Shown: positions 5,534-22,031 of the stretch, piece after piece
How the letters are laid out: every line of letters starts with the position of its first letter
Position numbering within the stretch: the stretch's first letter is position 1
Source of the DNA: an uncultured Planctomycetota bacterium
GTDB lineage: Bacteria; Planctomycetota; PUPC01
DNA: 22,031 nt
Direction of reading: 5' to 3'
NCBI GenBank assembly: GCA_964385685.1
Contig: CAYLQD010000063.1
Coordinates: 1-22,031, forward strand
Notes under the pieces: generated by a model
What the model saw: only the letters and a program-made list of their open reading frames with translations
Database searches by the model: none
Told to the model about the DNA's origin: nothing
Program-made: the position numbers and the translations under genes

Positions 5534-6507
5534 TGCCTGTACTCTCCTTCCTCTTTCTGCTTCTTCGCGTAGTCCTGCCGCTCGTTCTGGCTGGGGACGG
5601 GGCGGTCGTCGGGCCCGACGTACTCGATCATGCTGAGGTCGAGCATCTGGACCATCGGCTCGCGCTTCGACGCGGCCCAGGCGCGGCCGCGCTTCATCGA
5701 GTAGAGCGCGTGGGCGGCGCAACTGAACGCGCGGGAGACGCTGCCGATGCACCAGGCGGCGTTGGGCGCGAAGCCGAGATCGCAGAGGGCGGTGTTGCCG
5801 GCGCCGACGACGTTGACGCCGACGTGCGACCGGCCCTCGCGCTCGCGGCGCGCGTGGAAGTGCCGCTCGATGGCCCGCTGGAGTTCGAGATACACGCCGT
5901 TGACTCTCAGCTCCTCCTGCTTGAGGTGGGTCGGTTCCCCCCGCGGGTCCCCGTCGGTGTGCTGCGGCTGGCCGAGGCCCATCACGGGCCGCTTCGCGTC
6001 GAAGTACTCGTCGACGAGCGTCTTGCCGGTCTCATCGAGCGACTTGCCTTCGGCCCGCGCGCGTTCGAGGTGCTTGTTCATCATGTAGCCGTGCGCGGCG
6101 CCGGGCCCGTGGACGCCGCCGAACGTCATGATCGACGCGGCGACGGCGCAGGGCAGGTTGGGCCGGCCGGCGATGACGCCGAGGGCCGCGGCCGCGGAGG
6201 GCGACATCGAGTGCTCCATGAACTCGCCCATCTCGTACTTGAGCATCTCCTCCTCGTTCTCGGTCGGGATGCGGTTCTGGAAGAGGATGAACATCCCGTC
6301 GTAGAACGAGTAGCCCTCTTCGGCGAGGTCGCTCAGGTTGTAGCCGCGGAGGACGGTCTTCTCTTCCGTCTTGAAGGAGATACTCGTCTTGCGCCGGAAG
6401 AGCGGCCGGCGCTCCTTTTCCTCAGGCACCGAGACAGGACGGCGGGGCGGCCCCTCGGACCGGCGCCGCAAGCGAGGCCGTCGGATCTGGATCCCCATCA
6501 GTTTCAT
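5521..6507 (-). CDS. citrate synthase-family protein (divergent), paralogue 2
   Basis: ...TSISFKTEEKTVLRGYNLSDLAEEGYSFYDGMFILFQNRIPTENEEEMLKYEM... is a clear citrate-synthase N-terminal signature. GGVHGPGAAHGYMM resembles the GPLHGGANE region. MGLGQPQHTDGDPRGE resembles GFGHRVYK-x-DPRA, but with Gln at the catalytic His position. The paralogy with the 4490..5533 gene is evident by eye. The ATG at 6507 is preceded by GGAG 6 nt upstream. Confidence 0.55.
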   Translation of the reverse strand: MKLMGIQIRRPRLRRRSEGPPRRPVSVPEEKERRPLFRRKTSISFKTEEKTVLRGYNLSDLAEEGYSFYDGMFILFQNRIPTENEEEMLKYEMGEFMEHSMSPSAAAALGVIAGRPNLPCAVAASIMTFGGVHGPGAAHGYMMNKHLERARAEGKSLDETGKTLVDEYFDAKRPVMGLGQPQHTDGDPRGEPTHLKQEELRVNGVYLELQRAIERHFHARREREGRSHVGVNVVGAGNTALCDLGFAPNAAWCIGSVSRAFSCAAHALYSMKRGRAWAASKREPMVQMLDLSMIEYVGPDDRPVPSQNERQDYAKKQKEEGEYRQWVI

Positions 6508-7431: not shown

Positions 7432-9654
7432 TCAGGGCTGCGGGGCCTCGTAGGTGTCGTCGAGAGGCAGGGCCTCCGGCATTTCGGAGCCGGCTTCGGG
7501 TGCGGGCGCGGCGGCCGCTTCGTCGGGCGGCGCCTCTTCCGTATCCACGGGCGCGGCCGCTTCGTCGGCCGGTGCCCCTTCCGCATCCACGGCCGCGGCC
7601 GCCTCGTCGGGCGGCGGCGCTCCCGTATCCATGGGCACGGTGGCCGTCTCGTCGGGCGGCGGCGCTCCCGCATCCATGGGCGCGGCGGCCGTCTCGTCAG
7701 ATGACGGCTCCTCACCGGGTCGGACCGGGCCCATGAAATACTTGGTCAGGACCGAGGCGAGCCCATCGATCGAGCCAGAGCCGCCTCCGCCGGCGACGAG
7801 CACTTCGGGCACGAACTTGTTCTTGCCCTCGGCCACGGCGTGGGCGATGTTCACGAGCGCCGTCGGCGTTTGCCCGAGCGCCGCGACCTGCGCCCGGAAG
7901 GCCTCGGCGCGTGCCATGCCGATCGAGCGGTGCTTGGCGCCCTGCGCCTCGCCGGTCTTCTGGATGTACTCGGCCTCGCCCGAGCCCTCGGCCTTGCGGG
8001 CGTCGGCCTCGTTGGTCTTGATGTCGATGCTGACCTGCGACTTGGCGAGGTCGCGCTGCATGTCGGCGGTGCCGCGCGCCTTCTCCGTCGCGACGCGCTG
8101 GTTCTCGGCCGTCTCCTGCATCTCGTACGTCGCGATCTCCTGGTTCGCAATCTCGCGGTCGGTCAACACCTTGACGAGTTCCTGCGGCAAGACGACGTCC
8201 TGGATGTAGACGCCCGGCGTCTCGACCTTGTACTGCCCAAGCTCTTCCTGAATGTGCTGGAGCGCCTCCTTCTGCACGAGCTGGCGCGTCTCGATGAAGC
8301 GGATGGCGGGCATGCTCTGGAGCTTGTCGCGGAAGTGGTTGCCGACGGCCGCCTGCAACACTTCGTTGGCGAGGTTCTGCATCGTGCCGACCATCGAGAT
8401 GACCCACGGGGCTTGGGTGTCTGCGACGTGGATCTGGACCTGGAGGTCGATGGAGAACTCGAAGCCCTCGCGGCTCTTCGCGATGATGGGCTTGAGGTGG
8501 GCGTCGAGGTCGTGGGCGCGCGAGATGGCCTCCGCCCAGTTGAGCGTCAGGATGGCGGTCATCACGATCTGCGGCTGGTAGCAGTGGGGGTTGATCGGAT
8601 ACTTGCCGGTGCGAAGCGGCTCCTGCCAGATTCCGCGGTGGCCGGGGCGGACGAGCGACCCGAACTTGAACTCCTCGCCCGACGTGTCCTGTGTGACGAG
8701 GCCGACGTAGGACTTGATGACGGCAACCTGCCCCTGCTCGACGACCAGCATCGGCACGATCTCGACGCTGACGAGGAATGGGTTGAGCGTGTAGGCGCCG
8801 TAGAGCAACGGGTCGTGCTGAAGTCCGATCTTGCCGCCGCTGTCCAGGAACGCCTGGAAGTCCTGATAGTTGTTGTGCTTGTTGTTCTTGCTGCCGAGGA
8901 TCGCCTCGATCAGGTCATGGTCGGTCGTGCCCTCCGTGTGTTCCATCTCCTCGATATCCGAGAACCTGCCGAGCCGGCTCGCGATGGCGCCCGGCGGCAG
9001 CGGGTCCCCCTCATACGTGGTCACGATCCCGAGCGTGTCGATCGTCCGGCCGTCTTCGCCATGGACCTGCGGGCCGATGCGAAGGACGCGGAGCTGTTCG
9101 GGCGCCAAGCCGAACGACTCCGAAAGCAGCGCGCCGTCGCGCGCCGTGGCCTTCAGCTTGAGTTCTTCGGAGATGGGCACGCCATAGACACGGTCCTCGG
9201 TGATAGTCAGGAACGCCGCCGGATGGATAGGGGCAAGGGTGCCCGGCGGCAGCACGGGGCGCTGCACTCCCTTCTGCCCGCCGTTTTCGAGGAAGACGTG
9301 CAGGTCGCTGAAGTTGCCCAGCTCTGTCTTGTACACGGCCGACTTGGCGCCCGTCGGCAGCGGCGCGCCGACCTGGGCGACGACGACGCCGATCTTGCCG
9401 GCCGGAATCTGTACCCACGGATGCTTGCGGACGATATAGACGACCCAGAACTTGAACCGCCAGCCCGGCATCAGAAGGTCCGCCTGATACCCCGCCTCCC
9501 CGCGGAACGCGATGGGGTTATCCTCGCTCAGCTTTCTGAGCGAGAACCGCTTGATGACCAGGCCGATCTGCGTCGGGCCGATGATGCGGATCGACGGCAC
9601 GATCAGGATCAAAGCCACAATGAGGACCAGTGCGAGAATTGCCAAGGTGCCCAT
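7432..9654 (-). CDS. flotillin-family (SPFH/band-7 domain) membrane protein with a C-terminal acidic repeat tail
   Basis: 740 aa. N-terminal hydrophobic segment MGTLAILALVLIVALILIVPSIRIIGP. A long SPFH-like core. Then Glu/Ala-rich heptad-like flotillin repeats (...ATYEMQETAENQRVATEKARGTADMQRDLAKSQVSIDIKTNEADARKAEGSGEAEYIQKTGEAQGAKHRSIGMARAEAFRAQVAALGQ...). The ATG at 9654 is preceded by GGAGG at a 6-nt spacing. Confidence 0.7.
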   Translation of the reverse strand: MGTLAILALVLIVALILIVPSIRIIGPTQIGLVIKRFSLRKLSEDNPIAFRGEAGYQADLLMPGWRFKFWVVYIVRKHPWVQIPAGKIGVVVAQVGAPLPTGAKSAVYKTELGNFSDLHVFLENGGQKGVQRPVLPPGTLAPIHPAAFLTITEDRVYGVPISEELKLKATARDGALLSESFGLAPEQLRVLRIGPQVHGEDGRTIDTLGIVTTYEGDPLPPGAIASRLGRFSDIEEMEHTEGTTDHDLIEAILGSKNNKHNNYQDFQAFLDSGGKIGLQHDPLLYGAYTLNPFLVSVEIVPMLVVEQGQVAVIKSYVGLVTQDTSGEEFKFGSLVRPGHRGIWQEPLRTGKYPINPHCYQPQIVMTAILTLNWAEAISRAHDLDAHLKPIIAKSREGFEFSIDLQVQIHVADTQAPWVISMVGTMQNLANEVLQAAVGNHFRDKLQSMPAIRFIETRQLVQKEALQHIQEELGQYKVETPGVYIQDVVLPQELVKVLTDREIANQEIATYEMQETAENQRVATEKARGTADMQRDLAKSQVSIDIKTNEADARKAEGSGEAEYIQKTGEAQGAKHRSIGMARAEAFRAQVAALGQTPTALVNIAHAVAEGKNKFVPEVLVAGGGGSGSIDGLASVLTKYFMGPVRPGEEPSSDETAAAPMDAGAPPPDETATVPMDTGAPPPDEAAAAVDAEGAPADEAAAPVDTEEAPPDEAAAAPAPEAGSEMPEALPLDDTYEAPQP
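7486..7698 (-). repeat. five tandem ~42-bp (14-15 aa) repeats encoding the acidic, Pro/Ala-rich C-terminal tail of the flotillin (DETAAAPMDAGAPPP / DETATVPMDTGAPPP / DEAAAAVDAEGAPA / DEAAAPVDTEEAPP / DEAAAAPAPEAGS)
   Basis: Visible in both the DNA and the translation. Confidence 0.75.
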
Positions 9655-9868: not shown

Positions 9869-10849
9869 ATGGCACCTGCGAACGACGACCGGCCGCGGGG
9901 CGAAGGGCAGGGAACCCCTCCCGATCAGGACGACCGCGTCTCGACCGACCAGCTCGAAGACTGCTCCGCCTACCAGTATCCGCACGCCTTCATCAACAAG
10001 TCCGACCAGCCCATCGTCATCAAGGGGCTCGACCCGAAGTGGCACGAGCAGCTCACTCAGATGTACCTGGGCTACGAGCCCAAGGGCTCGTTCAGCGGCT
10101 TGCCGCCCCTCACGCCCGAGGCCTGCACGCGCTGGGTCGACGGCATGATCGCCCAGGCCGTCAACCTCATTGCGATGTCGTTCGAGGGCGGCGTCGTCGG
10201 CCACACCGCCATCTTTCCCTCGCCCGGGCGACGGTGCGAGATGCTCGTCGTTGTCTCGCCCCCCGACCAAAACCACGGCATCGGGACGGAACTCGTGCGC
10301 TGCACCGTCCACCTGTCGCACGCGCTCGGGTTCGAGCATATCTGGGCGTCGATCGAACTGAAGAACCTCCGATGCCGCCACGTTCTCAAGAAGTGCGGGT
10401 TCGAATGCCTCACGCCCACGAGCACCGACGAGTCGAAGCTCGAGCTGGACCTGCGCGGGTTCCACGACCCCAACCGGACGACCGTCTGTGAGGTCATGGA
10501 CCGGCACGTCATCACGATCCACAAGAACTGGTCGTGTCGCGACGCCGTCGAGATGTTCCTGAGCAGTCCGGTCGGCTCGCTGCCCGTTGTGAACGACCGC
10601 GACGAAGTCGTCGGGATCCTCTCGCAGACCGACCTCCTCGTGCCGGCCAACATCGACAAGCGGGTCGGCGATATCTGCACGCGGAAGGTCATCCGGGTCG
10701 ACGAGGATTGTTCGCTCGCCCGGGTGATTCACATCTTTCAGACGAAGAAGATCTGGTGCATCCCCGTGGTCGATATGGAAGGACGGCTGGCGGGGGTTGT
10801 CACGCGGGAGGACATCCTCGCCTACTTCTCCGACCGCAAGAAGAGGTAG
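9869..10849 (+). CDS. GNAT-family N-acetyltransferase fused to a C-terminal CBS-domain pair
   Basis: 326 aa. An acetyl-CoA-binding Q/R-x-x-G-x-G/A motif (DQNHGIGTELV) sits within ...EMLVVVSPPDQNHGIGTELVRCTVHLSHALGFEHIWASIELKNLRCRHVLKKCGFE. Two CBS-like repeats follow: VCEVMDRHVITIHKNWSCRDAVEMFLSSPVGSLPVVNDRDEVVGILSQTDLL and VGDICTRKVIRVDEDCSLARVIHIFQTKKIWCIPVVDMEGRLAGVVTREDILAYF. Confidence 0.6.
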   Translation: MAPANDDRPRGEGQGTPPDQDDRVSTDQLEDCSAYQYPHAFINKSDQPIVIKGLDPKWHEQLTQMYLGYEPKGSFSGLPPLTPEACTRWVDGMIAQAVNLIAMSFEGGVVGHTAIFPSPGRRCEMLVVVSPPDQNHGIGTELVRCTVHLSHALGFEHIWASIELKNLRCRHVLKKCGFECLTPTSTDESKLELDLRGFHDPNRTTVCEVMDRHVITIHKNWSCRDAVEMFLSSPVGSLPVVNDRDEVVGILSQTDLLVPANIDKRVGDICTRKVIRVDEDCSLARVIHIFQTKKIWCIPVVDMEGRLAGVVTREDILAYFSDRKKR

Positions 10850-10868: not shown

Positions 10869-12260
10869 TCACACCCGTCGCCGTCTGCGGCTGATCCCCA
10901 CCAGCCCAATCAGCCCCAGTCCGCCCGGCTCGGGGACGGGCGGGCGGGTGGCCGGGATGAGCCACAAGGTGAACCCCGGATTCGTCAGCCGGAGCTGGCC
11001 GAGCGGGAAGAAGCGGTCGTAGAGACAGAGCAGCGGGGTCGTGTCCCATTCGTCCGGCTGCAGGTGGTCCATCCAACTCGCGTAGAGGGCCGAGTTCAGC
11101 TCGACGGGCGGCAGGGCCTCGGCCTCGAAGTCGAAGACGAGCACGTTGCCGGGATTGCCGACCTCCGTGAACGTGAACCGCGGCATCACGGGGAGCGTGG
11201 CCTGATACGTACCGCCGTTGATGTGCGTCCGCGTCGCGGTCAGCTCGCCCTGCTGTTGCGTCGGGCTCAGATCGACAGACACGTCGAACTCCACGTCGCC
11301 TCCCGGCATGCCCGTGACGACGATCGGATCGGTGGACTGGAGACTGAGCGCGACGATCTCGATGGGAGTCGTGTCCATGTCGCCGACGCGAGGCAGGTTG
11401 AGTTCACCCGCCCGCGCGATGAGTGTGTCGGTCGAATCGTAGGGATCGGGCGCCGCGGCGTCGGCCGGCACGCCGCCGTCGAACGGATCGGAGCCGGGGC
11501 CGAAGAAGCCCGCGGGAATGGCCGGCACACCGCCCTTGCCGAACTCGACCTGGCACTGGACCGTCTCGTGGCACATCCAGCCGTCGATCGTCGCGCCGCA
11601 GATCGGCAGCAGGCACTCCTGAACGGGATTCTCGTACACGCCGTCGTATCCATCGAGCGGGCCGCCGACCGCTCCCTCGAATCCGGTCATGTATGAGATG
11701 TCGAAGGAGCTGTCGACGTTGTAGTCCCCGTCCGGCAGCTTGGTCAGCGTGACCTGGCCGAGGCACGGCGTGCCGTAGTTGCTCCCGGCGACGTACCAGA
11801 AGCTCTGGAAATTTGGGTCGGGCGGCGCGCCGCCCTCGAGCACGAGCAGGTTCGTGTCGAACGTCTGGACCGGGGCGCCCAGGGTCCGCGGCCCGGCGTG
11901 CGCGCCCATGAAGCCGTTGGCGTCGATCATGCCGCTGAAGCCGGCGAGGTCCCCGAGGCCGATGACGTCGAAATCGGCGTCGCACTGGACCGTCCCCTCG
12001 CATTCGCCGTCCAGCCCGGTGAATACCTCCTGGAAGTTATGGCAGTCCGACAGATCGAGGTCGCACTCGAGTTCCCAGTCGGGCGGCGGGACGGAATCGG
12101 CGCCGAACGTGATCCCGGTCATGTACATCGGGATCGTGATCAGGTCTTCGAGGTTGACCGTTCCCGTGCCGTCGTCGGGCGCGGTCGGCCCGGCCGCCGC
12201 TGGCGCCGCCAGCGCCATCGCGACTGTGACGCCCAATGCTGTCCGCATTATCATCCTCAT
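10869..12260 (-). CDS. PEP-CTERM sorting-domain protein 1 (Cys-rich secreted protein)
   Basis: Signal peptide MRMIMRTALGVTVAMALAAPAAAG. The C-terminus, ...PVPEPGGLGLIGLVGISRRRRRV*, carries the full PEP + hydrophobic helix + Arg-cluster signature of exosortase substrates. An AAAGGGGG Shine-Dalgarno site lies 7 nt before the ATG. Confidence 0.75.
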   Translation of the reverse strand: MRMIMRTALGVTVAMALAAPAAAGPTAPDDGTGTVNLEDLITIPMYMTGITFGADSVPPPDWELECDLDLSDCHNFQEVFTGLDGECEGTVQCDADFDVIGLGDLAGFSGMIDANGFMGAHAGPRTLGAPVQTFDTNLLVLEGGAPPDPNFQSFWYVAGSNYGTPCLGQVTLTKLPDGDYNVDSSFDISYMTGFEGAVGGPLDGYDGVYENPVQECLLPICGATIDGWMCHETVQCQVEFGKGGVPAIPAGFFGPGSDPFDGGVPADAAAPDPYDSTDTLIARAGELNLPRVGDMDTTPIEIVALSLQSTDPIVVTGMPGGDVEFDVSVDLSPTQQQGELTATRTHINGGTYQATLPVMPRFTFTEVGNPGNVLVFDFEAEALPPVELNSALYASWMDHLQPDEWDTTPLLCLYDRFFPLGQLRLTNPGFTLWLIPATRPPVPEPGGLGLIGLVGISRRRRRV

Positions 12261-12353
12261 TCTGTGCCCCCTTTCTTCTCTGCGGCGGCGCGGGCTGTGG
12301 CACAGCCACCCATCCCCCGCCCCGCCTTCCTGTTTCCTGTTCCGCCGCTGCGG

Positions 12354-14492
12354 CTACCTCCTTCTCTTGCGCGCCAATCCGATCCATCCGATCAGCAGCA
12401 GCCCCCACGCGCCCGGCTCGGGAATCGGCTCGCCGGTGCTAGGATCGACGACGACGAACTCGACGCCCGGCGTGTCGCTCTCCGGCTGCAGGTCCCACGT
12501 GTCGCCGAAGTCGATGTCGGCCCAGCCGGCGGCGTCGGACCACGCGTCGCCGCCCAGAGCGTAGTAGAGCGAGACATGCTCGCCCGGGGCGAGGAAGAAC
12601 ACGTCCTCCAGCAGAATATCGAGCGAGACGTTGAGGTCGACGCCGTTGGCCTGCGGGGTGACCACGAACGCGGAGTCGTACGCGGGGGCCTCGATGTCCA
12701 CCAACGGCATCACGAAATCGTCGTCGTCGCTGTCCGTGTTGAATACCGCGACCATGTACTGTCCAAGGCCCTCGTCGTAGAAGAGCTTGATGGTGGCATC
12801 GACCAGCGTCACTTCGGGGCTCGTCTCCGAGGCGGCCTGGGCGGTGAAGGCGAACTCCACCCTGCTGTCCTCTTCGCGGATGGACAGGGCGCCCGTGAGC
12901 AGCCAGCCGAGGTCGAAGTCGATGATTTCATCGCCGCCGACGGGCTCGAGTTGACTGACGAACGCGCCAGCACCCCAGGCGTGACGTGCGGTCGCTTCGG
13001 CGCCAAACGGGATGTACTCCCCCTCGGCGTACGCCTGGGCGGCGACCGAGCCGCCGCCGCCGAACGGGTTAATGGTCGCCCGGCCATGGCCCGAGGCGAC
13101 CGTCTGGGCGCCTTCGGTATGCTCGACGTCCACCGTCACGCCGTACGGGGGCGTATCGTCGGTGACGTCGAAGCTGTCGCCGTCCACTTCACCGGCCCTC
13201 GCACGGGCATAGGTGTCGTCGAGGTCGATGGTCTCGCCGGTCCCGCCGAGGGTCGCGGTGTAGACGGCGCTGCTCCCTTCGCCGTCCATGGTGAACGCGA
13301 CGGTGTCGCCGCGTACGCTCCGGTTGCCGATGCCGAATCCGGCCCAGTCGTAGCCGTTGAAGTCGTCGCCGCTGGCGGTCACCCGGTGCAGCGTGGCGCC
13401 CTCGAGGAAGTACAGGCCCATCGCGCCGTCGTCGTTACGGGTGGCCGTGAACGCGATGTTGTCGCCCCACCGCGACACGCCCTCCATCCCGATGCCGGTG
13501 AAGCCGCTGCCGTCTTCGGGGTCGGTGACGTCGTCGGGCACGGCCGTGGCAAGCGTGCCGCTATCGACCGTGACGATGACGCCGTTGGCACCCAGCGCCA
13601 CGTTGCCCTCGTGGACGCTGTAGCGGAGGAAGTTCCCCACCGGATTCCCGGTGTCGGGCACGATGTCCTGGCTGTCGACAATCTTCAGAAGGTCGCCGCC
13701 GGCCGTGTCCATCGAGTAGAGGCCGTAGCGGCCGACGTTGCTGAATCCGCCGAAGTAGATGCGGGTGCTGCCGCCGACCTCGGTGAACTGCGGATGGTAG
13801 TAGTGGAGGAACGTCTCGCCCGGCGCGTCCGGCACGGCCGCCGTGTCGTCCATGAATCGGGTGAGCGTGTCGGTCGAGTCGTTGAACAGGTAGAGCCCGT
13901 TCTGCGTCAGCGTGTGCGTCGCGGACGTTCCCGCGGCGAAGACCTGGCGGCGGCCGTACACGTCGGTCTGGGTGAACGACTCGAACGGAACGCCGTAGCC
14001 GGGCGCAATCGTCGCCAGGTCGGCGACGCGCGTGCCCGTTCCGCGGTACACGCTCGGCTGGCCGGTGTGAGTGGAGGGCGGATCGATGACATAGCCGTAC
14101 GCCGGGTACGTGCTGTCGGGCTTCTCGTCGAACGCGAAACTCCTCGGCTGATGAAGCAGCTCGCCCGATCCCGAGGGTGGGGCCTCCGTGGTCGTGTCGA
14201 AGACGACGCGGCCGGACAGCGCCATGTGGCTGTCGTAGAGCCCGTAGGTCCCGTCGCTCAGCCAGCCGGTGAAGGCGACGGTTTCGGCGGTCGACTCGTC
14301 GCTCAGAGCGGGGCCCATCCTGGCGTCCGAGACCTGGCGGAACGTCCCGCCTCCGCCGGCCGGCGCCGCCGACTCGCCCGCGATCCGCTTGAACACGAAG
14401 TCGGCCCGCGCGGGCGTCGCACACGCCAGCACGAGACCCGCCGCCACGCCCGACACGAACATCATCACCGCAACTTGCCTGAACATCTTCAT
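12354..14492 (-). CDS. PEP-CTERM sorting-domain protein 2 (large secreted protein, about 712 aa)
   Basis: C-terminus ...GEPIPEPGAWGLLLIGWIGLARKRRR*. The track ORF (to 14699) over-extends through the intergenic motif. The real start is ggaaGGAGATGAAGATGttc (ATG at 14492 or 14486), giving the signal peptide M(KM)FRQVAVMMFVSGVAAGLVLACATPARA. Confidence 0.7.
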   Translation of the reverse strand: MKMFRQVAVMMFVSGVAAGLVLACATPARADFVFKRIAGESAAPAGGGGTFRQVSDARMGPALSDESTAETVAFTGWLSDGTYGLYDSHMALSGRVVFDTTTEAPPSGSGELLHQPRSFAFDEKPDSTYPAYGYVIDPPSTHTGQPSVYRGTGTRVADLATIAPGYGVPFESFTQTDVYGRRQVFAAGTSATHTLTQNGLYLFNDSTDTLTRFMDDTAAVPDAPGETFLHYYHPQFTEVGGSTRIYFGGFSNVGRYGLYSMDTAGGDLLKIVDSQDIVPDTGNPVGNFLRYSVHEGNVALGANGVIVTVDSGTLATAVPDDVTDPEDGSGFTGIGMEGVSRWGDNIAFTATRNDDGAMGLYFLEGATLHRVTASGDDFNGYDWAGFGIGNRSVRGDTVAFTMDGEGSSAVYTATLGGTGETIDLDDTYARARAGEVDGDSFDVTDDTPPYGVTVDVEHTEGAQTVASGHGRATINPFGGGGSVAAQAYAEGEYIPFGAEATARHAWGAGAFVSQLEPVGGDEIIDFDLGWLLTGALSIREEDSRVEFAFTAQAASETSPEVTLVDATIKLFYDEGLGQYMVAVFNTDSDDDDFVMPLVDIEAPAYDSAFVVTPQANGVDLNVSLDILLEDVFFLAPGEHVSLYYALGGDAWSDAAGWADIDFGDTWDLQPESDTPGVEFVVVDPSTGEPIPEPGAWGLLLIGWIGLARKRRR

Positions 14493-14561
14493 CTCCTTCC
14501 CTCCTTTCACAAGTTTCACGTCCGGCCAAGTACCATCCGCACTCATTTCCTTCTTCTCAGC

Positions 14562-14588
14562 GCCTGCCCTGAGCCACGTCGAAGGGCC
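14562..14588 (-). repeat. ~27-nt recurring motif (sense GGCCCTTCGACGTGGCTCAGGGCAGGC), copy A. Other copies at 15704-15731 (B), 20106-20132 (C, inside the gene 8 coding tail) and 18968-18988 (D, inverted, overlapping the gene 7 stop)
   Basis: Near-identical strings read directly from the sequence. Contains an internal GCCCT...AGGGC stem. In copy C the same nucleotides encode the ...ALRRGSGRALGRKGRRR* tail of protein 8. In copies A and B the equivalent frame would read ALRRGSGQAL(R/K).RR(K/R) followed by a stop. Confidence 0.55.
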
Positions 14589-14604
14589 AGCATCGCGATT
14601 CTGC

Positions 14605-14680
14605 GCGACGGCAACGCCGTCGCGGGCGGCCTTCACCTCTACGGCTTCTCGCCGGTTTGGCCCGTGTTGGCCAAACCGGC
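14605..14680 (-). terminator. two strong hairpins 3' of PEP-CTERM gene 3: GCGACGGC-aac-GCCGTCGC (14605-14623) and a 12-bp stem GCCGGTTTGGCC-cgtgtt-GGCCAAACCGGC (14651-14680)
   Basis: Perfect stems read from the sequence. No U-tract follows, so intrinsic-terminator status is uncertain. The first hairpin is duplicated at 15748-15766, 3' of gene 4. Confidence 0.35.
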
Positions 14681-14720
14681 CCGGGCGGCTGATCGCCACA
14701 GCAATCAGCTTGCGGCCCTC

Positions 14721-15641
14721 CTACGAAAGGGCCGCCCGCCTCCTCCTCCGCAGCAGCAGGAGGGCCGCTATCAGCCCGAGCCCCGCGGGCTCGTGGACGG
14801 GCTCGCCGGCCAGGAAGTGGCCCGACTCCGACGTCCACGTGACGCCCTCGGGCACCTGCACCGGGCCGAGCGTTACGGTGTGGTGGTAGTGGACGCCCAA
14901 ATGAATCCCGCTCATGGCCAGCGGGTCCGGATTGACCCCCGCCGTCTCGGCGTCGGCCTGGATGGATGCGCTCATGTCGAACTCGGTAACCTTCTCGGTG
15001 TAGGAGAAGAAGGGCTCGATCGTCGTCCGTAGCTCGCCCTGCGTGTTGACCGTTCTGCCGCCGGGCGCCTCCACCAGGTCGACGATGTCCTGGAACGTCG
15101 TGATCCCGAGCGCCAGCCGCACCTCCGCGAGCAGGGCAAACCCCGTCACCGGCGGGCCGCCCGGATCCTGGAGAAGGGCCTCGACAAGGCCGGTGATCGT
15201 GTATGGAATCACGACGTCGACGCCCTCGGGATAGTTGCCCGGCGGCGTGGTGATGAGCAGCTTGTCGCGCATCTCCACGAACGAACTGGCGGTCACTCTC
15301 GACCAGCCGCCGGGGTATGCGGCGTTCTCAATGGCGGCGTATGCCCCCATCTCGGCCGTCCGCAGGTCGACAAGCCCATAGCCCTCGGCGATGTCCCCTT
15401 CAACCCCGGCGAGCGTGCCGTCGCCGACGAGGGTCGGCTCCTGGCTGAACTCCATCTCGTCGATAAACTGAATCTCTCCATCCGGGCCCGGGTCGACCTC
15501 TAGGTACATCATCCGCGAGGTGACGTGGGTCGTCTCGGCCACCGCGGCCGACGCGCACCAGGCGAGCACGGCGATCGCAACCGCCGCCGCGCAGCACGCC
15601 AGTGGCCGCAGCGGTCTTCCTGTGTTCCGCTCGTTCCTCAT
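14721..15641 (-). CDS. PEP-CTERM sorting-domain protein 3 (paralogue of protein 4)
   Basis: Real start MRNERNTGRPLRPLACCAAAVAIAVLAWCASAAVA, with its ATG at 15639-15641 preceded by GGAAGGAGGAGGaca. The track ORF extends to 15782 through the upstream motif. C-terminus ...HEPAGLGLIAALLLLRRRRRAALS*. Confidence 0.7.
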   Translation of the reverse strand: MRNERNTGRPLRPLACCAAAVAIAVLAWCASAAVAETTHVTSRMMYLEVDPGPDGEIQFIDEMEFSQEPTLVGDGTLAGVEGDIAEGYGLVDLRTAEMGAYAAIENAAYPGGWSRVTASSFVEMRDKLLITTPPGNYPEGVDVVIPYTITGLVEALLQDPGGPPVTGFALLAEVRLALGITTFQDIVDLVEAPGGRTVNTQGELRTTIEPFFSYTEKVTEFDMSASIQADAETAGVNPDPLAMSGIHLGVHYHHTVTLGPVQVPEGVTWTSESGHFLAGEPVHEPAGLGLIAALLLLRRRRRAALS

Positions 15642-15657
15642 TGTCCTCCTCCTTCCC

Positions 15658-15674
15658 GGCGCCCCCTTGGCGCC
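15658..15674 (-). promoter_or_regulatory. leader hairpin GGCGCC-ccctt-GGCGCC immediately 5' of the Shine-Dalgarno site of PEP-CTERM gene 3 (member of a recurring element)
   Basis: GGCGCC is self-complementary, so GGCGCC-N5-GGCGCC forms a 6-bp stem with a 5-nt loop. It lies roughly 1-6 nt 5' of the GGAGGAG-type Shine-Dalgarno site in the mRNA sense. Other copies: 16738-16754 (gene 4, loop gttgc), 20825-20841 (gene 8, loop gttgt), 21549-21565 (gene 9, loop gttgt) and a variant GCGCC-gcgcg-GGCGC at 17471-17485 (gene 5). Confidence 0.5.
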
Positions 15675-15812
15675 CGTCCCGTTCAACGCCTCCTCGTCTT
15701 CAACGCCTGCCCTGAGCCACGTCGAAGGGCCATCATCGCCAGCCGCGCGACGGCAACGCCGTCGCGTTGGCAGAATGGCCAAGAAGCCATTCGGCCAGCG
15801 GCCCGCTCGTGC

Positions 15813-16721
15813 TCAGCGTCTCTTTCTTCGCAGCAGCACGAGGGCCGCCATCAGTCCGAGCCCCGCCGGCTCTGGAACGGGCTCGCCGGCCAGGAAGAAG
15901 CCCGACTCCGACGTCCACGTGACGCCCTCCGGCACCTGCAGCGGCCCGAGCGTCACCGTGTGGTCGTAGTAGACGCCCAGATCGATCCCGCTCGCGGCCA
16001 GGGGATCCGGATCGACCCCCGCCGTCTCGGCCTGGGCATCGATGTACGCGGCCATGCCCATCTCGGTGACCTTCTCGGTGTAGGAGAAGAAGGGTTCGAT
16101 CGTCGTCCGCAGCTCGCCCTGCCGGTTGACCGTCACGACGCTCGGCGCCGACACCAGGTCGACGATATCCTCGAACGTGGTGATCCCCAGCGCCATCCTC
16201 ACCGCCGCGAGCATGTTGAACCCCGTCACCGGCCCGCCGAGCGGGTTCTGGAGGTCGGCCTGGAGAACGCCGGTGATCTGGTACGGGATGATGACGGGGA
16301 CTCCATCGGGGTAGTTGCCCGGCGGCGTGGTGATGAGCAGCGTGTCACGCATCTCCACGGACGAGCTGGCGGTCGCGCTCGACCAGCCGCTGGGGTACGA
16401 GGCGTTTTGGATGGCGGCGGACGCCCCCAGCTCGCCCGTCCGCAGGTCGACGCGCCCCTGGCCCTCGGCCATGTCGCCTTCGATCCCGGCGAGCATGCTG
16501 CCGCCGATCAGCATCGCTTCGTGGCTGAACACCGTCTCGTCAACGAACTGGAACTCGCCGTCCTCGCCCGGGTCGACCTCCAGGTACATCATCCGCGAGG
16601 TGATGTGGACTTGCTGCTGAGCCGCAGCGGACGCGCACCATGCGAGCAGGGCGATCACAACACCCGCCGCGCAGCACGCCAGCGGCCGCAGCGACCCTCC
16701 TGCATTTCTTCCGTTCCTCAT
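15813..16721 (-). CDS. PEP-CTERM sorting-domain protein 4 (paralogue of protein 3)
   Basis: MRNGRNAGGSLRPLACCAAGVVIALLAWCASAAA...PVPEPAGLGLMAALVLLRRKRR*. Same leader and Shine-Dalgarno site as gene 3. Extensive identity to gene 3 is visible at the DNA level. Confidence 0.75.
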   Translation of the reverse strand: MRNGRNAGGSLRPLACCAAGVVIALLAWCASAAAQQQVHITSRMMYLEVDPGEDGEFQFVDETVFSHEAMLIGGSMLAGIEGDMAEGQGRVDLRTGELGASAAIQNASYPSGWSSATASSSVEMRDTLLITTPPGNYPDGVPVIIPYQITGVLQADLQNPLGGPVTGFNMLAAVRMALGITTFEDIVDLVSAPSVVTVNRQGELRTTIEPFFSYTEKVTEMGMAAYIDAQAETAGVDPDPLAASGIDLGVYYDHTVTLGPLQVPEGVTWTSESGFFLAGEPVPEPAGLGLMAALVLLRRKRR

Positions 16722-16762
16722 TGTCCTCCTCCTTCCTGGCGCCGTTGCGGCGCCCGTTATGC

Positions 16763-17455
16763 CTACCGCCTTCTTCTTCTCGCCGTAATCATTGCCAGCC
16801 CGAGCAAGCCGAGGCCGGCGGGCTCGGGGATGGGCGGGCCGGCAGTCCGGATGTCGGAAAGGACGTACGTCCCGACGCCATTGTTGATTCCGAAGGTGAC
16901 GTAGAGCGCATGGGCGAAATCGGTCGGGCCGGCGATGAAATCGCTGTACAAGAACTCGTAGACGCCGGGGCCCGTGATGTGATGCGTAAGCTCCGAGTCG
17001 TTCACTGCCATGTCGCTCACCTTGGTGACCATGCTGTCCATCGGCCCGGCGCCGTCGGCTCGGGTCAAGGTGACCAGAATGCGGTCGTGCTGCCCGCCTT
17101 CCGTGAGGTCGACGTTGTTCAGGCCGGCTTGGCCCACGCCGTCGTAGAAGAACGCCGCGAGCGCTCCGCCACCATCGCCGGTGTTGTTGAACGCAATGAT
17201 CGTGGCGTCTGGGTCCGGTGTCAGTTGCAGGTCGGCGGTCACGGACGCAGTTGGCGCGCTACCCGCGTTGAGCGAGACCTCCCGCTCGGTGCCGACGATG
17301 CTGCTTGCCGGGCCCGTCTGGATGTCGGTGTTCGTCCCCGGGTGGCTCAGCGAAAACGGCCCCTCTTCGAAGTCATCAATCACGACCGCTTTGGCCGGCG
17401 CCGCCAACAGCACGACGACGGTACAACATAGCATCACGATCCCCGTCTTTGTCAT
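16763..17455 (-). CDS. PEP-CTERM sorting-domain protein 5 (about 230 aa)
   Basis: Start MTKTGIVMLCCTVVVLLAAPAKA (ATG at 17453-17455, with GGAGGAG 8 nt upstream). C-terminus ...PIPEPAGLGLLGLAMITARRRRR*. The track ORF over-extends to 17521. Confidence 0.7.
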   Translation of the reverse strand: MTKTGIVMLCCTVVVLLAAPAKAVVIDDFEEGPFSLSHPGTNTDIQTGPASSIVGTEREVSLNAGSAPTASVTADLQLTPDPDATIIAFNNTGDGGGALAAFFYDGVGQAGLNNVDLTEGGQHDRILVTLTRADGAGPMDSMVTKVSDMAVNDSELTHHITGPGVYEFLYSDFIAGPTDFAHALYVTFGINNGVGTYVLSDIRTAGPPIPEPAGLGLLGLAMITARRRRR

Positions 17456-17495
17456 CTTGTCCTCTCCTCCGCGCCGCGCGGGCGCTTCAGCTGCG

Positions 17496-18842
17496 TCACC
17501 TCCTTCGCCGTATGAATCCAAGCATCCCCAGGCCGATCAATCCCAGAGCGCCCGGCTCGGGAATGATGAGGTCTCGCATGGCCGACGCGTGCGACGAGAT
17601 CGCGGCGAGGGTCGATGCGTCGGTGTCGTAGACCGAATACCAGCCGGGCGTTTCGTGCGGCGGGTCGCCGATCCACTGCGGGACCGGATCGCCCGGGCGG
17701 CCCTCGCCGCCCCACGCCCAGAAGTTGTCGCCCGCAGCCGACCCGCCCGACGACGCGGACGCATAGACCGCGTCGAACATCGCGGCGTAGAACGCGTCGC
17801 GGTGCGACGTCGGCGCGGCCGGGTCGTGGTGGTCGGGCCCGGTCCAGCCGTCGCGCGCCAGGCCGAACTCCTCGAGCACAACGGGCTTGGCGAGGATGTT
17901 GAGCGCCTCCTGCTCGTGGGTCTGGAAGTAGGCGAGCGCCTGGGCTTCGGCCGCGGCGTAGGTTGTGGGATCGGTCGGGTTGTACCAGCCCCAGTTCTCC
18001 GGCCAGATGTGCGTCGTCGCGTAGTCGATCTTTTCGCCGTTGTGCGTCTCGACGAACGTCCGGTCCTCCCATCCGGCGAGCCACGTCTCGGCGCCGGTCT
18101 CGCCCTCGAAGCCGGTCGTCACGAGGTGGTTGGGATCGAGCGACTTGATGTACGCGGCGGTGTCGTCGATCCAGTCGGCGGGGAACCGCCGCGGCTCGTT
18201 GGCCAGCTCCCACGCGAAGATGGTCGGGTCGTCTTTGTACGCCTCCCCGTTCACGGTGTTGACGCGGCCAACGACCTCGTCGATGTGGTCGCGGAACCAC
18301 GTCTGGCACTGCGCGTTCGTGTAGAACTGCGCGCTGTAGTTCTGGAACGCGTTCCAGTCGCCGGGATAGGGGATCGATCCGCCGATATCCCACTGAACGT
18401 ATTGGGCCATGCCGCCGGACCAGTGCCAGAAGTTGTTGAGGACCATCACGGCCCGCATGTCGCGCTGGTTCATCTCGTCGAGCAGGTGGTCGAGCCCGCC
18501 GAAGACGGCCGGGTTGTAGACGCCGGGCGCGGTCTGGAGCGACGGGACGGCGCGGTAGGGCTCTGTGTCGGGTCCTTCGGAGCCGGCCAGGATGCGCAGG
18601 TTGGTGATGCCGGCGGCCTGGAGGCGGTCGAGTTCGCGGCTGAGGCGCGCGCGGTTGCCGTCTGGGCCGACGACGCCGAGGTTCATCCCCTGCCAGAGGT
18701 TCGCGCCGACGAAGTTGTAGGGCTGTCCGTCGAGTTCAAAGGCCACGCCGTTGACGGCGACGAACCCGAAGTTGTCGGCCCGCGCCATTACCGCCGAGGC
18801 CAGCAGCGCCCCGGCGATGACTATGGATAGACACTTGCTCAC
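17496..18842 (-). CDS. glycoside hydrolase family 5 endo-beta-mannanase-like enzyme carrying a PEP-CTERM sorting tail
   Basis: Signal peptide MSKCLSIVIAGALLASAVMARA (GTG start, with GGAG 9 nt upstream). It has ...IFAWELANEPR..., the GH5 catalytic-acid NEP motif in the WELxNEPR context typical of GH5 mannanases. It also has ...KPVVLEEFGL..., the nucleophile E in a TEFG-like context. C-terminus ...IIPEPGALGLIGLGMLGFIRRRR*. Confidence 0.65.
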   Translation of the reverse strand: MSKCLSIVIAGALLASAVMARADNFGFVAVNGVAFELDGQPYNFVGANLWQGMNLGVVGPDGNRARLSRELDRLQAAGITNLRILAGSEGPDTEPYRAVPSLQTAPGVYNPAVFGGLDHLLDEMNQRDMRAVMVLNNFWHWSGGMAQYVQWDIGGSIPYPGDWNAFQNYSAQFYTNAQCQTWFRDHIDEVVGRVNTVNGEAYKDDPTIFAWELANEPRRFPADWIDDTAAYIKSLDPNHLVTTGFEGETGAETWLAGWEDRTFVETHNGEKIDYATTHIWPENWGWYNPTDPTTYAAAEAQALAYFQTHEQEALNILAKPVVLEEFGLARDGWTGPDHHDPAAPTSHRDAFYAAMFDAVYASASSGGSAAGDNFWAWGGEGRPGDPVPQWIGDPPHETPGWYSVYDTDASTLAAISSHASAMRDLIIPEPGALGLIGLGMLGFIRRRR

Positions 18843-18983
18843 TGTAGTGACTCCGGCCAGGGAATCACGCCGCGCAAGGCGCGCCGCATCCTCTCATTGC
18901 GGCCCCCGAGGGGCCGTTCTCGATCTGTTCCACCCGCCCAAGCGGGTGCTCAGCTTCTTTTGCGTCGCCGCCCTTCGACGGGC

Positions 18984-19907
18984 TCAGCGTCTTCGCTGCC
19001 GCTTCGACAGCCCGATCGCTGCCAACCCGAGGAACCCGAGCCCGGCCGGCTCGGGGATGATGGTGAGGTCCAACGCAACGCCCCCCGGGCCCGAAAGCCC
19101 CGTCACGACGTCCTCGGCGTTGCTGCCGTCGAGATCCGCGCGCTGGATCGAGTTCAGGTCGCGATCGGCCCAGTACATCTTGCCCGCGGCCACGTCGAGC
19201 GCGATCCCACGGGGGTTCGGCTGCGACACCAGAAGATCCTCGACGTTGCTGCCATCGAGGTTCGCACGCTGGATCTTGTCCGTTGCGAAAGCCGTCCAGT
19301 ACACCTTGCCGCCGGCAGGGTCCACCGCGATCCCCCAAGCGTCCTCAATTCCGCTGCTCACCAGGGTCTCGACGTTACCGCCGTCCAGATCGGCGCGCCT
19401 GACCAGGTCGTCAGCACCCGCACCCTGCTGCTCGACCCAGTACATCTTGCCGTTGGTCAGGTCGAGGTCGATGGCAACGGGGACCAAGAGGCCGGTCGTT
19501 ACGAGGTTCTCCACGTTGCTGCCATCGAGGTCCGCGCGTCGGATCGCGTCCGCCCACGCCTCGGTCCAGTAGACCTTGTCCGCGGCCAGGTCGAGCGCGA
19601 CGCCCGCCGCGCCATCGGCGCCGGTGATCAGGTCCTGGACGTTGCTGCCGTCCAGATTCGCGCGCTGGACCTTGTCTGCGAGCTCGTCCGCCCAGTACAT
19701 CTTGCCCCCGGCACCATCCAGCGAGATTTCAGCCGGGACGTCCAGCCCTGTCGTTACCAGGTCCTCGACGTTCGAGCCGTCCAGGTCGGCGCGCTGGATC
19801 TTGTGCGCGTCATGGTCCGTCCAGTACACCTTGGCGGCCTGTGCGCGCGGCGCCGCGAACACCGCGACGCAAACCGTCACCACCAAACCCACGATTGCCT
19901 TCCTCAT
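18984..19907 (-). CDS. six-bladed YWTD (LDL-receptor class B-type) beta-propeller protein with a PEP-CTERM tail
   Basis: Six ~42-aa repeats of the form K(V/M)YW(T/A)D....IQRA(D/N)LDGSNVEDLVT.GL..P.GIALD. Start MRKAIVGLVVTVCVAVFAAPRAQA (ATG at 19905-19907, with GGAGG 8 nt upstream). C-terminus ...TIIPEPAGLGFLGLAAIGLSKRQRRR*. The track ORF over-extends to 19976. Confidence 0.65.
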   Translation of the reverse strand: MRKAIVGLVVTVCVAVFAAPRAQAAKVYWTDHDAHKIQRADLDGSNVEDLVTTGLDVPAEISLDGAGGKMYWADELADKVQRANLDGSNVQDLITGADGAAGVALDLAADKVYWTEAWADAIRRADLDGSNVENLVTTGLLVPVAIDLDLTNGKMYWVEQQGAGADDLVRRADLDGGNVETLVSSGIEDAWGIAVDPAGGKVYWTAFATDKIQRANLDGSNVEDLLVSQPNPRGIALDVAAGKMYWADRDLNSIQRADLDGSNAEDVVTGLSGPGGVALDLTIIPEPAGLGFLGLAAIGLSKRQRRR

Positions 19908-20077
19908 CTCTCCATCCTCCAAAAGGTTCCTCTGCTTCAACACCACGCAGGCGACCGCCGCCTGCGTCCGCTCCAACTCACCAGCGCCAGGCCGATGAGC
20001 CCAGCCCCCTTCGTCGTCGATTGGCTCGCATCACCTCCTTTCCGCGGGCGGCGGCTGTCATCCGGCCCGCCCGTCTC

Positions 20078-20806
20078 TCAGCGCCGTCTCCCCTTTCTTC
20101 CCAGTGCCCGTCCTGAGCCCCGTCGAAGGGCCAGCGCCGCCGGCCCGATCAGAGCCAGCCCGGCCGGCTCGGGGACGACGGGCGGTGGCGGGACGCCGTC
20201 ACCCGTTATCACAAAGGCGAGGTCGAGCGACTCGGCCGTGATCAGGTCGGGGTAACTCGATACGTCGGCGGTCTTCCAGCCCCAATTGCCGTGGGCAGCC
20301 GTCACGGAGATCCCCAGCCAGTAGGTGGTGCCCTCCTCCTGGAAGAACGGATCGGCGATGTTCGCAACGTTGTATTGATAGCACTCGGTATGGTCGTGCT
20401 GAGCGTAGTTACCCGAGCCCGGGTCGAACCAGCCCTGGTCGCCCGTACCGTAGAAGCGTTCCGCCCATTCCCCTGGGTAAAGGTCGCGCTGCCAGAGCAG
20501 GACGTCCGGTTTGCTCTGGTCATCCGCGTAGATGCTGAGGCGGATCTCGGAGAGCGTGCCCACAGTGTCGCCCTTCCATGAGCCCCAGAAATGGATGTCC
20601 GTGACCGGTCCGCTCGCCGTGCACGTCCAGTCGTCGGCCAGGACCGTGTCACCATACGCGGCCACGTCCCAGCCGTTCAGGTCGGGCAGTTGCGGAAAGT
20701 GCATCTTATGCCCGTCGCCGGGGTCCCAGTCGGCGCGGGCCGCCGCAGCGACCAACGCAACGGCCGCGAGCACAACCGCCGCTCCGCCGATAGCCTTCGT
20801 CTTCAT
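20078..20806 (-). CDS. PEP-CTERM sorting-domain protein 8 with an unusually extended basic tail
   Basis: Start MKTKAIGGAAVVLAAVALVAAAARA (ATG at 20804-20806, preceded by the GGCGCC hairpin and a GGAGGAG Shine-Dalgarno site). C-terminus ...VVPEPAGLALIGPAALALRRGSGRALGRKGRRR*. The track ORF over-extends to 21025. Confidence 0.65.
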   Translation of the reverse strand: MKTKAIGGAAVVLAAVALVAAAARADWDPGDGHKMHFPQLPDLNGWDVAAYGDTVLADDWTCTASGPVTDIHFWGSWKGDTVGTLSEIRLSIYADDQSKPDVLLWQRDLYPGEWAERFYGTGDQGWFDPGSGNYAQHDHTECYQYNVANIADPFFQEEGTTYWLGISVTAAHGNWGWKTADVSSYPDLITAESLDLAFVITGDGVPPPPVVPEPAGLALIGPAALALRRGSGRALGRKGRRR

Positions 20807-20850
20807 CGTGCTCTCCTCCTTCTTGGCGCCGTTGTGGCGCCTGTTTGTCC

Positions 20851-21532
20851 TCAGCGTCTCTTCGTTCTCAGCCCGACGAGCGCCAGGCCGAGCAGGCCCA
20901 GGCCGGCGGGCTCGGGGATAGCAGGGCTCGCGGCCACCTGTGTGACGCTCAACGCGCTCCACGACCGGTCGATCGGCCAGCCGAAATCCCAGCGGGCATA
21001 CAGCCACGAGCCGTCCGTGAGCCACATGTAGATTCCGTTGGAACCAGCGTTGTAGTCCGCACTTTCAGGGACATGCGGGCCGGGACCGGTGCTGCCCCAA
21101 TCCCCAGCTGTGCCTGCCGAGCCCTCGGACCCGATGTACTGGTGGTTCGTGCCGAAAGCCCCGACCCACGGGATGTCGGCCTCCATGGTAGTCCTCGCCG
21201 CCGGCGCCGTGGAAGCAGCTTTCGATGGGCTGCCAGTCATTACCGCCCGCCGTCGGGTCGAAGAACTCGATGGTGAACAGTTCGGTGGTTGTCGGAACGC
21301 CGGGGCCGCTCAGTTCCCAGTAGACGCGGCGGACGCCGTCCATCGTATTGGCCCCCCAGGCGCTGGTGCCGGCGTATCCGGCGCCCGCGTATTCAGTCCA
21401 GCCGGAGCCCACAAGGTGGTCGACCGGCAGGACCCAACTGTCCCCGACTCCCGCCAACGCAGCGCTGCACGAGAAGAACAGAGCGGCCGCCGCCACCGCA
21501 CCACACAACGTCCAATATCCCATCTTACTCAT
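20851..21532 (-). pseudogene. PEP-CTERM sorting-domain gene 9 disrupted by an apparent +1 frameshift near 21175-21195 (pseudogene or sequencing error)
   Basis: The 5' part (track ORF 21065..21532) opens with a good signal peptide, MSKMGYWTLCGAVAAAALFFSCSAALAG. It reads as protein up to ...EFFDPTAGGNDWQPIESCFHGAGGEDYHGG and then becomes Arg/His-rich junk. The 3' part lies in the frame of ORF 20851..21240 and reads ...ADIPWVGAFGTNHQYIGSEGSAGTAGDWGS...WDFGWPIDRSWSALSVTQVAASPAIPEPAGLGLLGLALVGLRTKRR*. The two frames differ by one nucleotide around ccatggaggccgac. Confidence 0.55.
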
Positions 21533-21574
21533 GACGCTCCTCCTCTCCGGCGCCGTTGTGGCGCCTGCTTGCTC

Positions 21575-22031
21575 TCAGCGTCTCTTGTTCCTCAGCCCAA
21601 CGAGCGCCAGCCCGATCAACGCGAGCCCTGCCGGCTCGGGAATCGGCGGCGGCTCTCCACCATGCGCATTGATGACGAGCGAAGTCGCGGCGGTGAAGGA
21701 CGCAAGGTTGTGATCTTGGTTGACGTATGCCGGCGCAACGCCGCCCGTGCTGCTCGGAACCGACGGCCCAAGCGAGATCGTGATATCGCTGGCGGGCGCA
21801 GAGATAATCGCCTGGTACGTCGCCAGCAGGAGCGGCTCCGGCACGGTGGGCAGCGGAGTAGTCACGGCGAGGAAGACGTTGTTGCCCGATCCGATGTTGA
21901 GCGCGCCCGGCGGGAGGACGCGGTCCAGAACGATGCCGGGGGCCGCCAGCAGCTCGGACGTGTCGATGCTGAACTCGTAGCCCCGCACCCCCGTGTCACC
22001 GGCCGGGAATCCGTCGGCGACGACATAGAAA
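21575..22031 (-). CDS. PEP-CTERM sorting-domain protein 10 (5' end beyond the window)
   Basis: The frame stays open upstream of the listed GTG at 21988 to the window edge (...FYVVADGFPAGDTGVRGYEFSIDTS...). C-terminus ...PPPIPEPAGLALIGLALVGLRNKRR*. Confidence 0.65.
   Translation of the reverse strand, partial: FYVVADGFPAGDTGVRGYEFSIDTSELLAAPGIVLDRVLPPGALNIGSGNNVFLAVTTPLPTVPEPLLLATYQAIISAPASDITISLGPSVPSSTGGVAPAYVNQDHNLASFTAATSLVINAHGGEPPPIPEPAGLALIGLALVGLRNKRR

Follow-up and report, generated by a model that had tools for sequence, protein, structure and literature searches.

Subfamily 7 of glycoside hydrolase family 5 (GH5_7) is composed mostly of endo-mannanases (PMC3526467). Two enzymes, CmMan5A from Cellvibrio mixtus and RmMan5B from Rhizomucor miehei, both assigned to this subfamily (PMC8233224, PMC3526467), represent a type that has been characterized as cleaving mannose units one at a time from manno-oligosaccharides and mannan, acting at the non-reducing end; oligo- and polysaccharides are both attacked by CmMan5A, which frees mannose at their non-reducing termini (PMC3526467). 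The negative subsites are closed by a continuous loop (CmMan5A, residues 379-410; RmMan5B, residues 357-386; PMC8233224), which turns the endo-mannanase fold into an exo-mannosidase (PMC8233224; PMC3526467). In this work, we analyzed a stretch of 22,031 nucleotides from an uncultured Planctomycetota bacterium (contig CAYLQD010000063.1 of assembly GCA_964385685.1), referred to below as the window, that includes a complete gene located at 17496..18842 on the minus strand. On the basis of the list of open reading frames (ORFs) and the matches of their products to the structures 4LYP and 1UUQ, the gene codes for a 448-amino-acid protein that appears to be a secreted GH5_7 exo-mannosidase-like enzyme ending in a PEP-CTERM sorting tail.

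PEP-CTERM proteins, the cargo of exosortases, have been described as sharing little besides their tails (Haft 2006, PMC1569441; Haft 2023 preprint), and fewer than 10% of them match any Pfam family (Haft 2006, PMC1569441). A genome with more than two such proteins always had an EpsH/exosortase homologue (Haft 2006, PMC1569441). The experimental support summarized by Haft concerns floc formation (Haft 2023 preprint). PepA of Zoogloea resiniphila, a protein required for this process, has the same three-part sorting signal as the protein described here and differs from it in being non-enzymatic (Haft 2023 preprint). The founding paper had already presented enzyme families in which a PEP-CTERM domain is appended, and had called them rare (Haft 2006, PMC1569441). 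The enzymes in its Figure 2 have the architecture found in this locus, a tail of ~24 residues at the very end of the protein and homologues that are tail-less. An initial annotation of the window had proposed that the gene codes for a GH5 beta-mannanase connected to the exosortase pathway.

Results

The GH5 (beta/alpha)8-barrel catalytic domain comprises residues 23-423 of the protein (17574..18776, minus strand), as determined by phmmer searches of the Protein Data Bank (PDB), AlphaFold2 (AF2) modeling, and Foldseek. In the phmmer alignments, residues 16-411 were covered by 4LYP and residues 24-416 by 1UUQ. The AF2 model was built on an alignment of 42 homologues, A1, which also served as a profile; it reached a predicted local distance difference test value (pLDDT) of 85.4 and a predicted template modeling score (pTM) of 0.87. 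Comparison of this model with known structures using Foldseek yielded target-normalized TM-scores of 0.89 for 4LYP, 1UUQ, and 7ODJ, and the values for GH5 structures overall were between 0.82 and 0.89. The motifs WELANEPR (residues 211-218) and LEEFG (residues 323-327) provide an acid/base glutamate within N-E-P (N215-E216-P217) and a nucleophile glutamate, E325, located ~100 residues further on. E216 (codon at 18195..18197, minus strand) aligns with the residue replaced in the RmMan5B mutant E202A (4LYQ/4NRS), and E325, the second glutamate in LEEFG (codon at 17868..17870, minus strand), aligns with the one replaced in E301A (4LYR). Therefore, the identification of the catalytic glutamates goes beyond the motifs alone. 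The two signatures pointed out in the initial annotation were confirmed in this way, through the alignment to characterized Man5 enzymes that it had suggested. Both glutamates are invariant in A1, as are R83, W141, N215, H278, W280, N283, E324, W375, and E397. Residues W141, N283, and E397 align with W119, N260, and E380 of RmMan5B, which reportedly contact the mannose at the -1 position.

Sequence and structure comparisons also bear on the mode of action. The best phmmer matches in the PDB were the exo-beta-1,4-mannosidases RmMan5B (4LYP, E=1e-105) and CmMan5A (1UUQ, E=4e-88), whereas the endo-mannanases scored far lower (soybean 9M20, E=1.7e-48; tomato 1RH9, E=7e-38; others weaker). The order was maintained when the A1 profile was compared with the PDB, with values of 1.8e-132 and 5e-124 for the exo-enzymes versus 6e-60 for the endo-mannanases. 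In the Foldseek comparison, 4LYP and 1UUQ superimposed with root-mean-square deviations (rmsd) of ~2.5 Å at 39-43% identity, and the endo-mannanases had TM-scores of at most 0.85 and rmsd values above 4 Å. RmMan5B (4LYP, 4LYQ, 4LYR, 4NRR, and 4NRS) is the best match in sequence and fold, with 42-43% identity, and coincides with the protein in the two catalytic glutamates, acid/base and nucleophile, and in the steric-block loop. This fungal enzyme lacks a PEP-CTERM tail, and the planctomycete protein has a 9-residue insertion at positions 249-257 with respect to it. CmMan5A (1UUQ, 1UZ4, and 7ODJ), a bacterial enzyme, is the second-best match with 39% identity; its GDPPxE..G.Y loop aligns, but it lacks the tail and has a longer insertion after the NEP motif. 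The GH5_7 endo-mannanases LeMAN4 from tomato (1RH9) and 9M20 from soybean coincide with the protein in subfamily, fold, and catalytic residues but are devoid of the C-terminal loop, besides their lower scores and higher rmsd values.

The region equivalent to the steric-block loop was placed at residues 378-408 (17619..17711, minus strand) by alignment with the RmMan5B and CmMan5A loops, with approximate bounds that were set through the tag offset in the 4LYP chain. It follows strand 8 and, in the sequence alignment, its length is similar to that of the loops in both exo-enzymes. The core residues G392, D393, P394, P395, H396, E397, G400, W401, and Y402 are invariant in the family as represented in A1, and the alignments to the plant GH5 endo-mannanases 9M20 and 1RH9 end at residues 384 and 382, respectively, where the loop begins. 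At the sequence level, therefore, the protein keeps the exo-type steric-block loop. Judging from homology at ~40% identity, it is most probably an exo-beta-1,4-mannosidase rather than an endo-mannanase, and we infer its placement in subfamily 7 from the nearest characterized relatives, which the literature assigns to GH5_7. The designation beta-mannanase used in the initial annotation, if understood in the endo sense, has to be replaced in view of these scores and of the loop.

The PEP-CTERM tail, IIPEPGALGLIGLGMLGFIRRRR, occupies residues 426-448 (17499..17567, minus strand), the extreme C-terminus of the protein, and the hidden Markov model (HMM) match ends at the last residue. It consists of II-PEP (428-430), a 14-residue hydrophobic stretch, GALGLIGLGMLGFI, and the basic cluster RRRR. 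The matches to PF07589 (25.4 bits; curated cut-off, 20.7) and TIGR02595 (19.8 bits; cut-off, 16) both exceed their thresholds, in agreement with the initial claim of a genuine tail. Residues 432-447 are helical in the AF2 model, and the tail is kept in five orthologues (79-100% identity). The PEP motif is located only ~4 residues beyond the last helix of the barrel (409-423), and tail-less homologues stop a few residues past the equivalent helix, which indicates that the tail was appended without a spacer. The NCBIfam model floc_PepA produced a weak match, limited to the tail (22.3 bits versus a cut-off of 80), and membership in that family was ruled out on this account.

At the opposite end of the protein, residues 1-22 (MSKCLSIVIAGALLASAVMARA; 18777..18842, minus strand) form a predicted signal peptide with cleavage expected before D23. 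Inspection of the sequence revealed a hydrophobic core and an A-R-A site followed by DNFGF, and this layout recurs at the N-terminus of the orthologues P0002-P0005 (79-84% identity), where it ends in ...ARADNVGF. In the AF2 model, residues 2-19 are helical with low pLDDT. These characteristics are those of a Sec-type signal peptide, which the protein would thus possess. The ORF begins with GTG and runs uninterrupted for 448 codons up to the stop codon at 17496-17498. The gene called by JGI, of 430 amino acids, starts too late, since it is the GTG start that gives the signal peptide found in the orthologues. An identical 448-amino-acid product was called in the ENA and Logan assemblies, and independent assemblies (two from ENA, one from Logan, and three JGI metagenomes) all contain this protein with its gene order unchanged, a coincidence that excludes an assembly artifact. 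The window and ENA scaffold_5081 are 99.98% identical across 19.6 kb. A comparison with the ENA contig shows that the window starts with a duplication of ~78 bases (3-80 repeats 84-161), probably an artifact of the end of the assembled contig.

The gene is part of an array of 11 genes with PEP-CTERM-type tails (10869..22031, minus strand), which was defined by a tail scan, the ENA gene calls, and BLAST. One of the 11 tails has HEP instead of PEP, and one ORF is cut by the end of the window. In all-against-all BLAST comparisons, the array proteins were unrelated except for their tails and one pair of tandem paralogues. The location in a PEP-CTERM array together with a YWTD propeller, as stated in the initial annotation, was corroborated by the 11 same-strand ORFs and by the Pfam match of the propeller (E=5.5e-32). 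There are, then, several PEP-CTERM proteins in the same genome, 11 of them on one contig, and the co-occurrence rule of Haft 2006 leads to expect an exosortase in this genome.

The enzyme family includes 507 clusters at 50% identity (E<=1e-30), with genome matches in Anaerolineales, Acidimicrobiaceae, Myxococcales, Lentisphaerales, Bacteroidota, and others. PEP-CTERM tails are infrequent in it. They were found in seven of the 120 closest homologues, in a single one of 150 diverse representatives (P0155, where the tail follows a dockerin domain), and at one of 30 species-representative genome loci, which belongs to a Planctomycetota metagenome-assembled genome (MAG). In a neighbor-joining tree, the protein and four orthologues, including that of the Planctomycetota MAG, form one tailed clade, whose nearest relatives have other C-terminal additions or, in the case of P0010, again the tail. 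The tailed proteins P0011 and P0155 are placed elsewhere. Since the tailed members are scattered over the tree, gain or loss of the tail has occurred on several occasions, and modules are exchanged at the C-terminus in this clade. The genetic environment of the orthologues varies as well. In the Planctomycetota MAG, the gene lies beside housekeeping genes, and in the closest contig, L008, it is found within five PEP-CTERM ORFs, one of which codes for a BNR_2 protein. The array context is common to L008 but is missing on contigs L004 and L005, and consequently the array is not a fixed operon. The BNR_2 protein of L008 (3572-5125; 517 amino acids) is a sialidase-like propeller with a PEP-CTERM-type tail just under the Pfam cut-off, and its gene adjoins that of a fucosidase with F5/8 type C domains. 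It is possible that this is a second glycan-active PEP-CTERM protein of the lineage.

The gene located immediately downstream, 40 nt after the stop codon of the GH5 gene, codes for a 230-amino-acid PEP-CTERM protein (16763..17455, minus strand). Its orthologue on L008, 83% identical, also adjoins the GH5 orthologue, but on the upstream side, and all nine members of its family are tailed. The 230-amino-acid protein is a possible partner of the GH5 enzyme. Its model, a beta-sandwich with pLDDT 69.6, produced weak matches to jelly-roll folds similar to those of carbohydrate-binding modules (TM-scores of 0.58 or less); this low-confidence result was not taken as a sign of sugar binding. On the other side of the GH5 gene, 18984-19907 (minus strand) codes for the beta-propeller of the YWTD/LDL-receptor-class-B type with a PEP-CTERM tail. 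Its blades are visible as DNA repeats of 126-141 nt, and it also showed a weak match to the propeller of the virginiamycin B lyase family. The tandem paralogues (14721-15641 and 15813-16721, minus strand) were identified by BLAST as 74% identical at the amino acid level and appear as DNA repeats at a spacing of 1080 nt. The first of them (14721-15641) has the HEP tail, with five extra residues past the basic cluster, which may be a degenerating or variant signal.

A 49-nt repeat is present just 3′ of several PEP-CTERM genes, at 14548-14596, 15691-15739, and 20092-20140 on the plus strand. Its core, CGTCGAAGGGC, occurs four times (0.03 expected by chance), including a copy at 18970-18980 on the minus strand. 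In the gene for the DUF7901 protein, which is among the tailed members of the array, the repeat is translated as an extended basic tail, RRGSGRALGRKGRRR, and a nearly identical peptide, RRGSGRALRRKRS, ends the L008 orthologue of the 230-amino-acid protein. The 49-nt repeat near the array folded no better than shuffled sequence, and a promoter and terminator scan of the array yielded counts at the level of shuffled sequences. For most array proteins, NCBIfam and Pfam searches identified nothing beyond the tails, and sequence searches of the PDB with the 712- and 459-amino-acid neighbors returned nothing useful.

Outside the array, a heparinase II/III-like protein (84-2319, minus strand; PF16889, PF07940) runs off the start of the window, so that the N-terminal 745 of its 887 residues are represented. 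It has a polysaccharide-lyase-type fold and no PEP-CTERM tail. On contig L005, which belongs to another lineage, a 1035-amino-acid TIG and DUF4962/heparinase-like protein is encoded directly after the GH5-PEP-CTERM gene of that contig. Two adjacent genes at 4490-5533 and 5521-6507 (minus strand) code for proteins that resemble citryl-CoA lyase or citrate synthase, although neither comes close to the NCBIfam cut-offs. Next to them are the genes for a 740-amino-acid Band 7/SPFH protein (7432-9654) and, on the strand opposite to the citryl-CoA-lyase-like genes, a GNAT-CBS fusion (9869-10849). A pentapeptide-repeat protein is encoded on the 23.7-kb contig just outside the window.

Discussion

These results are best explained by an active retaining GH5_7 exo-mannosidase that is exported by Sec, processed by an exosortase, and retained at the cell, an explanation to which we assign a probability of about 0.6. 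As read from the sequence, the enzyme would be exported through the Sec pathway and held transiently in the cytoplasmic membrane by its C-terminal helix, oriented so that the RRRR cluster faces the cytoplasm. Cleavage at or near PEP would then be carried out by an exosortase whose gene lies in another part of the genome; this exosortase would pass the enzyme on, and the active enzyme would be retained in the cell envelope, at the surface, or in the matrix instead of diffusing away. Since it would stay at the cell, the mannose that it releases would be produced beside the cell and captured locally.

Several observations weigh against this explanation. The model PF00150 (Cellulase) did not match the protein in a local Pfam scan, even at E<=10, and a related GH2 barrel model gave a sub-threshold match. 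The initial annotation had staked its assignment on a GH5 HMM hit, which is missing for PF00150; however, PF26410 (GH5_mannosidase) is listed for the protein in the precomputed Pfam tables, and homologues at ~60% identity reach PF00150 (P0011, 31 bits; P0014, 23.5 bits; cut-off, 23.5). The miss probably reflects the low sensitivity of the model and not a property of the protein, and it was not taken to contradict membership in GH5, given the agreement of the PDB matches, the fold match, and PF26410. With respect to the mode of action, the AF2 model is at its least confident in the loop (pLDDT 60-69), and the nearest relative with activity data is 43% identical according to Foldseek, which makes exo action and mannoside specificity an extrapolation. 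Other mannan-utilization genes, such as those for an endo-mannanase or a transporter, were absent from the vicinity, and for this reason the context does not support a natural substrate. Neither an exosortase nor an EPS-synthesis gene (EPS, exopolysaccharide) was found among the ORFs of the window or of the 23.7-kb contig. The proposal that the enzyme is wired to the exosortase pathway is therefore sustained by the tail and the ten neighboring PEP-CTERM genes, which point to such a link, but not by an exosortase on the contig. Finally, the acceptor and the end location of exosortase cargo are not settled in the literature (Haft 2023 preprint).

In the main alternative, the enzyme would work in the periplasm on imported manno-oligosaccharides, either tethered to the membrane or released there by the exosortase. 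Experiments have yet to show what becomes of exosortase cargo (Haft 2023 preprint), the preference of the characterized relatives for oligosaccharides suits an exo-enzyme located in the periplasm, and the ~4 residues between the barrel helix and PEP leave out the Ser/Thr-rich spacer of many PEP-CTERM proteins, so that without cleavage the enzyme would lie directly at the membrane. What is conserved, however, is the full three-part signal and not just any hydrophobic helix, which argues for a dedicated processing enzyme, and the floc-formation experiments point to surface retention of PEP-CTERM proteins (Haft 2023 preprint). We consider the periplasmic location unlikely, although the other alternatives are less likely still. 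One of them is a surface-displayed endo-beta-1,4-mannanase that cuts inside mannan chains. The predominance of endo-mannanases in GH5_7 (PMC3526467), the catalytic machinery common to both modes, and the name 'mannan endo-1,4-beta-mannosidase' that JGI gives to many homologues are in its favor, but those names were assigned automatically, no endo-mannanase comes near the two exo-enzymes in its score with the protein, and the protein has the 31-residue loop that blocks the subsites beyond -1, with the invariant core GDPPHE..GWY. Endo action is accordingly improbable.

The two remaining alternatives concern the role of the enzyme and of its tail. Instead of foraging, the enzyme could take part in matrix maintenance, remodeling the mannose-containing EPS of the organism itself or the glycans of its PEP-CTERM neighbors. 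PEP-CTERM systems are tied to EPS loci and their cargo is thought to be glycosylated (Haft 2006, PMC1569441; Haft 2023 preprint), and the gene is found among cargo genes, not sugar-uptake genes. Nevertheless, nothing in the present data points to beta-1,4-mannan in the EPS of this organism, and tail-less homologues are widespread in phyla that have no PEP-CTERM systems (among others, Anaerolineales, Acidimicrobiaceae, and Bacteroidota), a distribution that fits ordinary carbohydrate catabolism; we regard a remodeling role as highly improbable. It could also be argued that the tail has no function and arose when neighboring PEP-CTERM genes recombined at their similar 3′ ends, because the tail-coding DNA of six array genes makes up a repeat family, D3, with 61-71% identity that could permit exchange. 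Such an origin is the most remote of the alternatives considered, given that the PEP motif, the helix, and the basic cluster are intact in orthologues from four other contigs (79-84% identity), among them contig L004, where the gene stands outside any array.

The initial annotation considered PEP-CTERM cargo to be mostly non-enzymatic, in agreement with the literature (Haft 2006, PMC1569441; Haft 2023 preprint), but it overstated the surprise of finding an enzyme with this tail, since enzyme families with the tail are already present in the founding paper (Haft 2006). Literature searches for PEP-CTERM in combination with glycoside or glycosyl hydrolases, carbohydrate-active enzymes, mannanase, or Planctomycetes returned incidental mentions only, such as that of a Microbulbifer PEP-CTERM protein picked out by dbCAN2. 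They did not identify a published study of a PEP-CTERM glycosidase or one linking the tail to a mannan-degrading enzyme. The combination of a GH5 exo-mannosidase and a PEP-CTERM tail thus appears to be undescribed, although tailed enzymes are known as a category and both domains are already listed for this protein in the precomputed Pfam tables. The result is well supported as a refinement of the annotation, from endo- to probably exo-acting and cell-retained, and does not constitute a new mechanism.

On a more speculative level, the contig could represent a co-sorted 'cargo island', that is, a glycan-foraging set that the exosortase would display on the surface and that is composed of the exo-mannosidase, the beta-sandwich protein as a possible carbohydrate binder, the YWTD propeller, and others. 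We find this idea improbable. If true, it would be a planctomycete counterpart of the surface-anchored enzyme systems of other bacteria, and PEP-CTERM sorting would serve metabolism in addition to the structure of flocs. An enzyme that keeps its activity after exosortase processing would, if this is the case here, make a handy reporter for the location and attachment of PEP-CTERM proteins, because its activity is easily assayed. Should the explanation favored here, a cell-retained exo-mannosidase, be correct, some Planctomycetota would keep a mannose-releasing enzyme on the cell, without losing it by diffusion.

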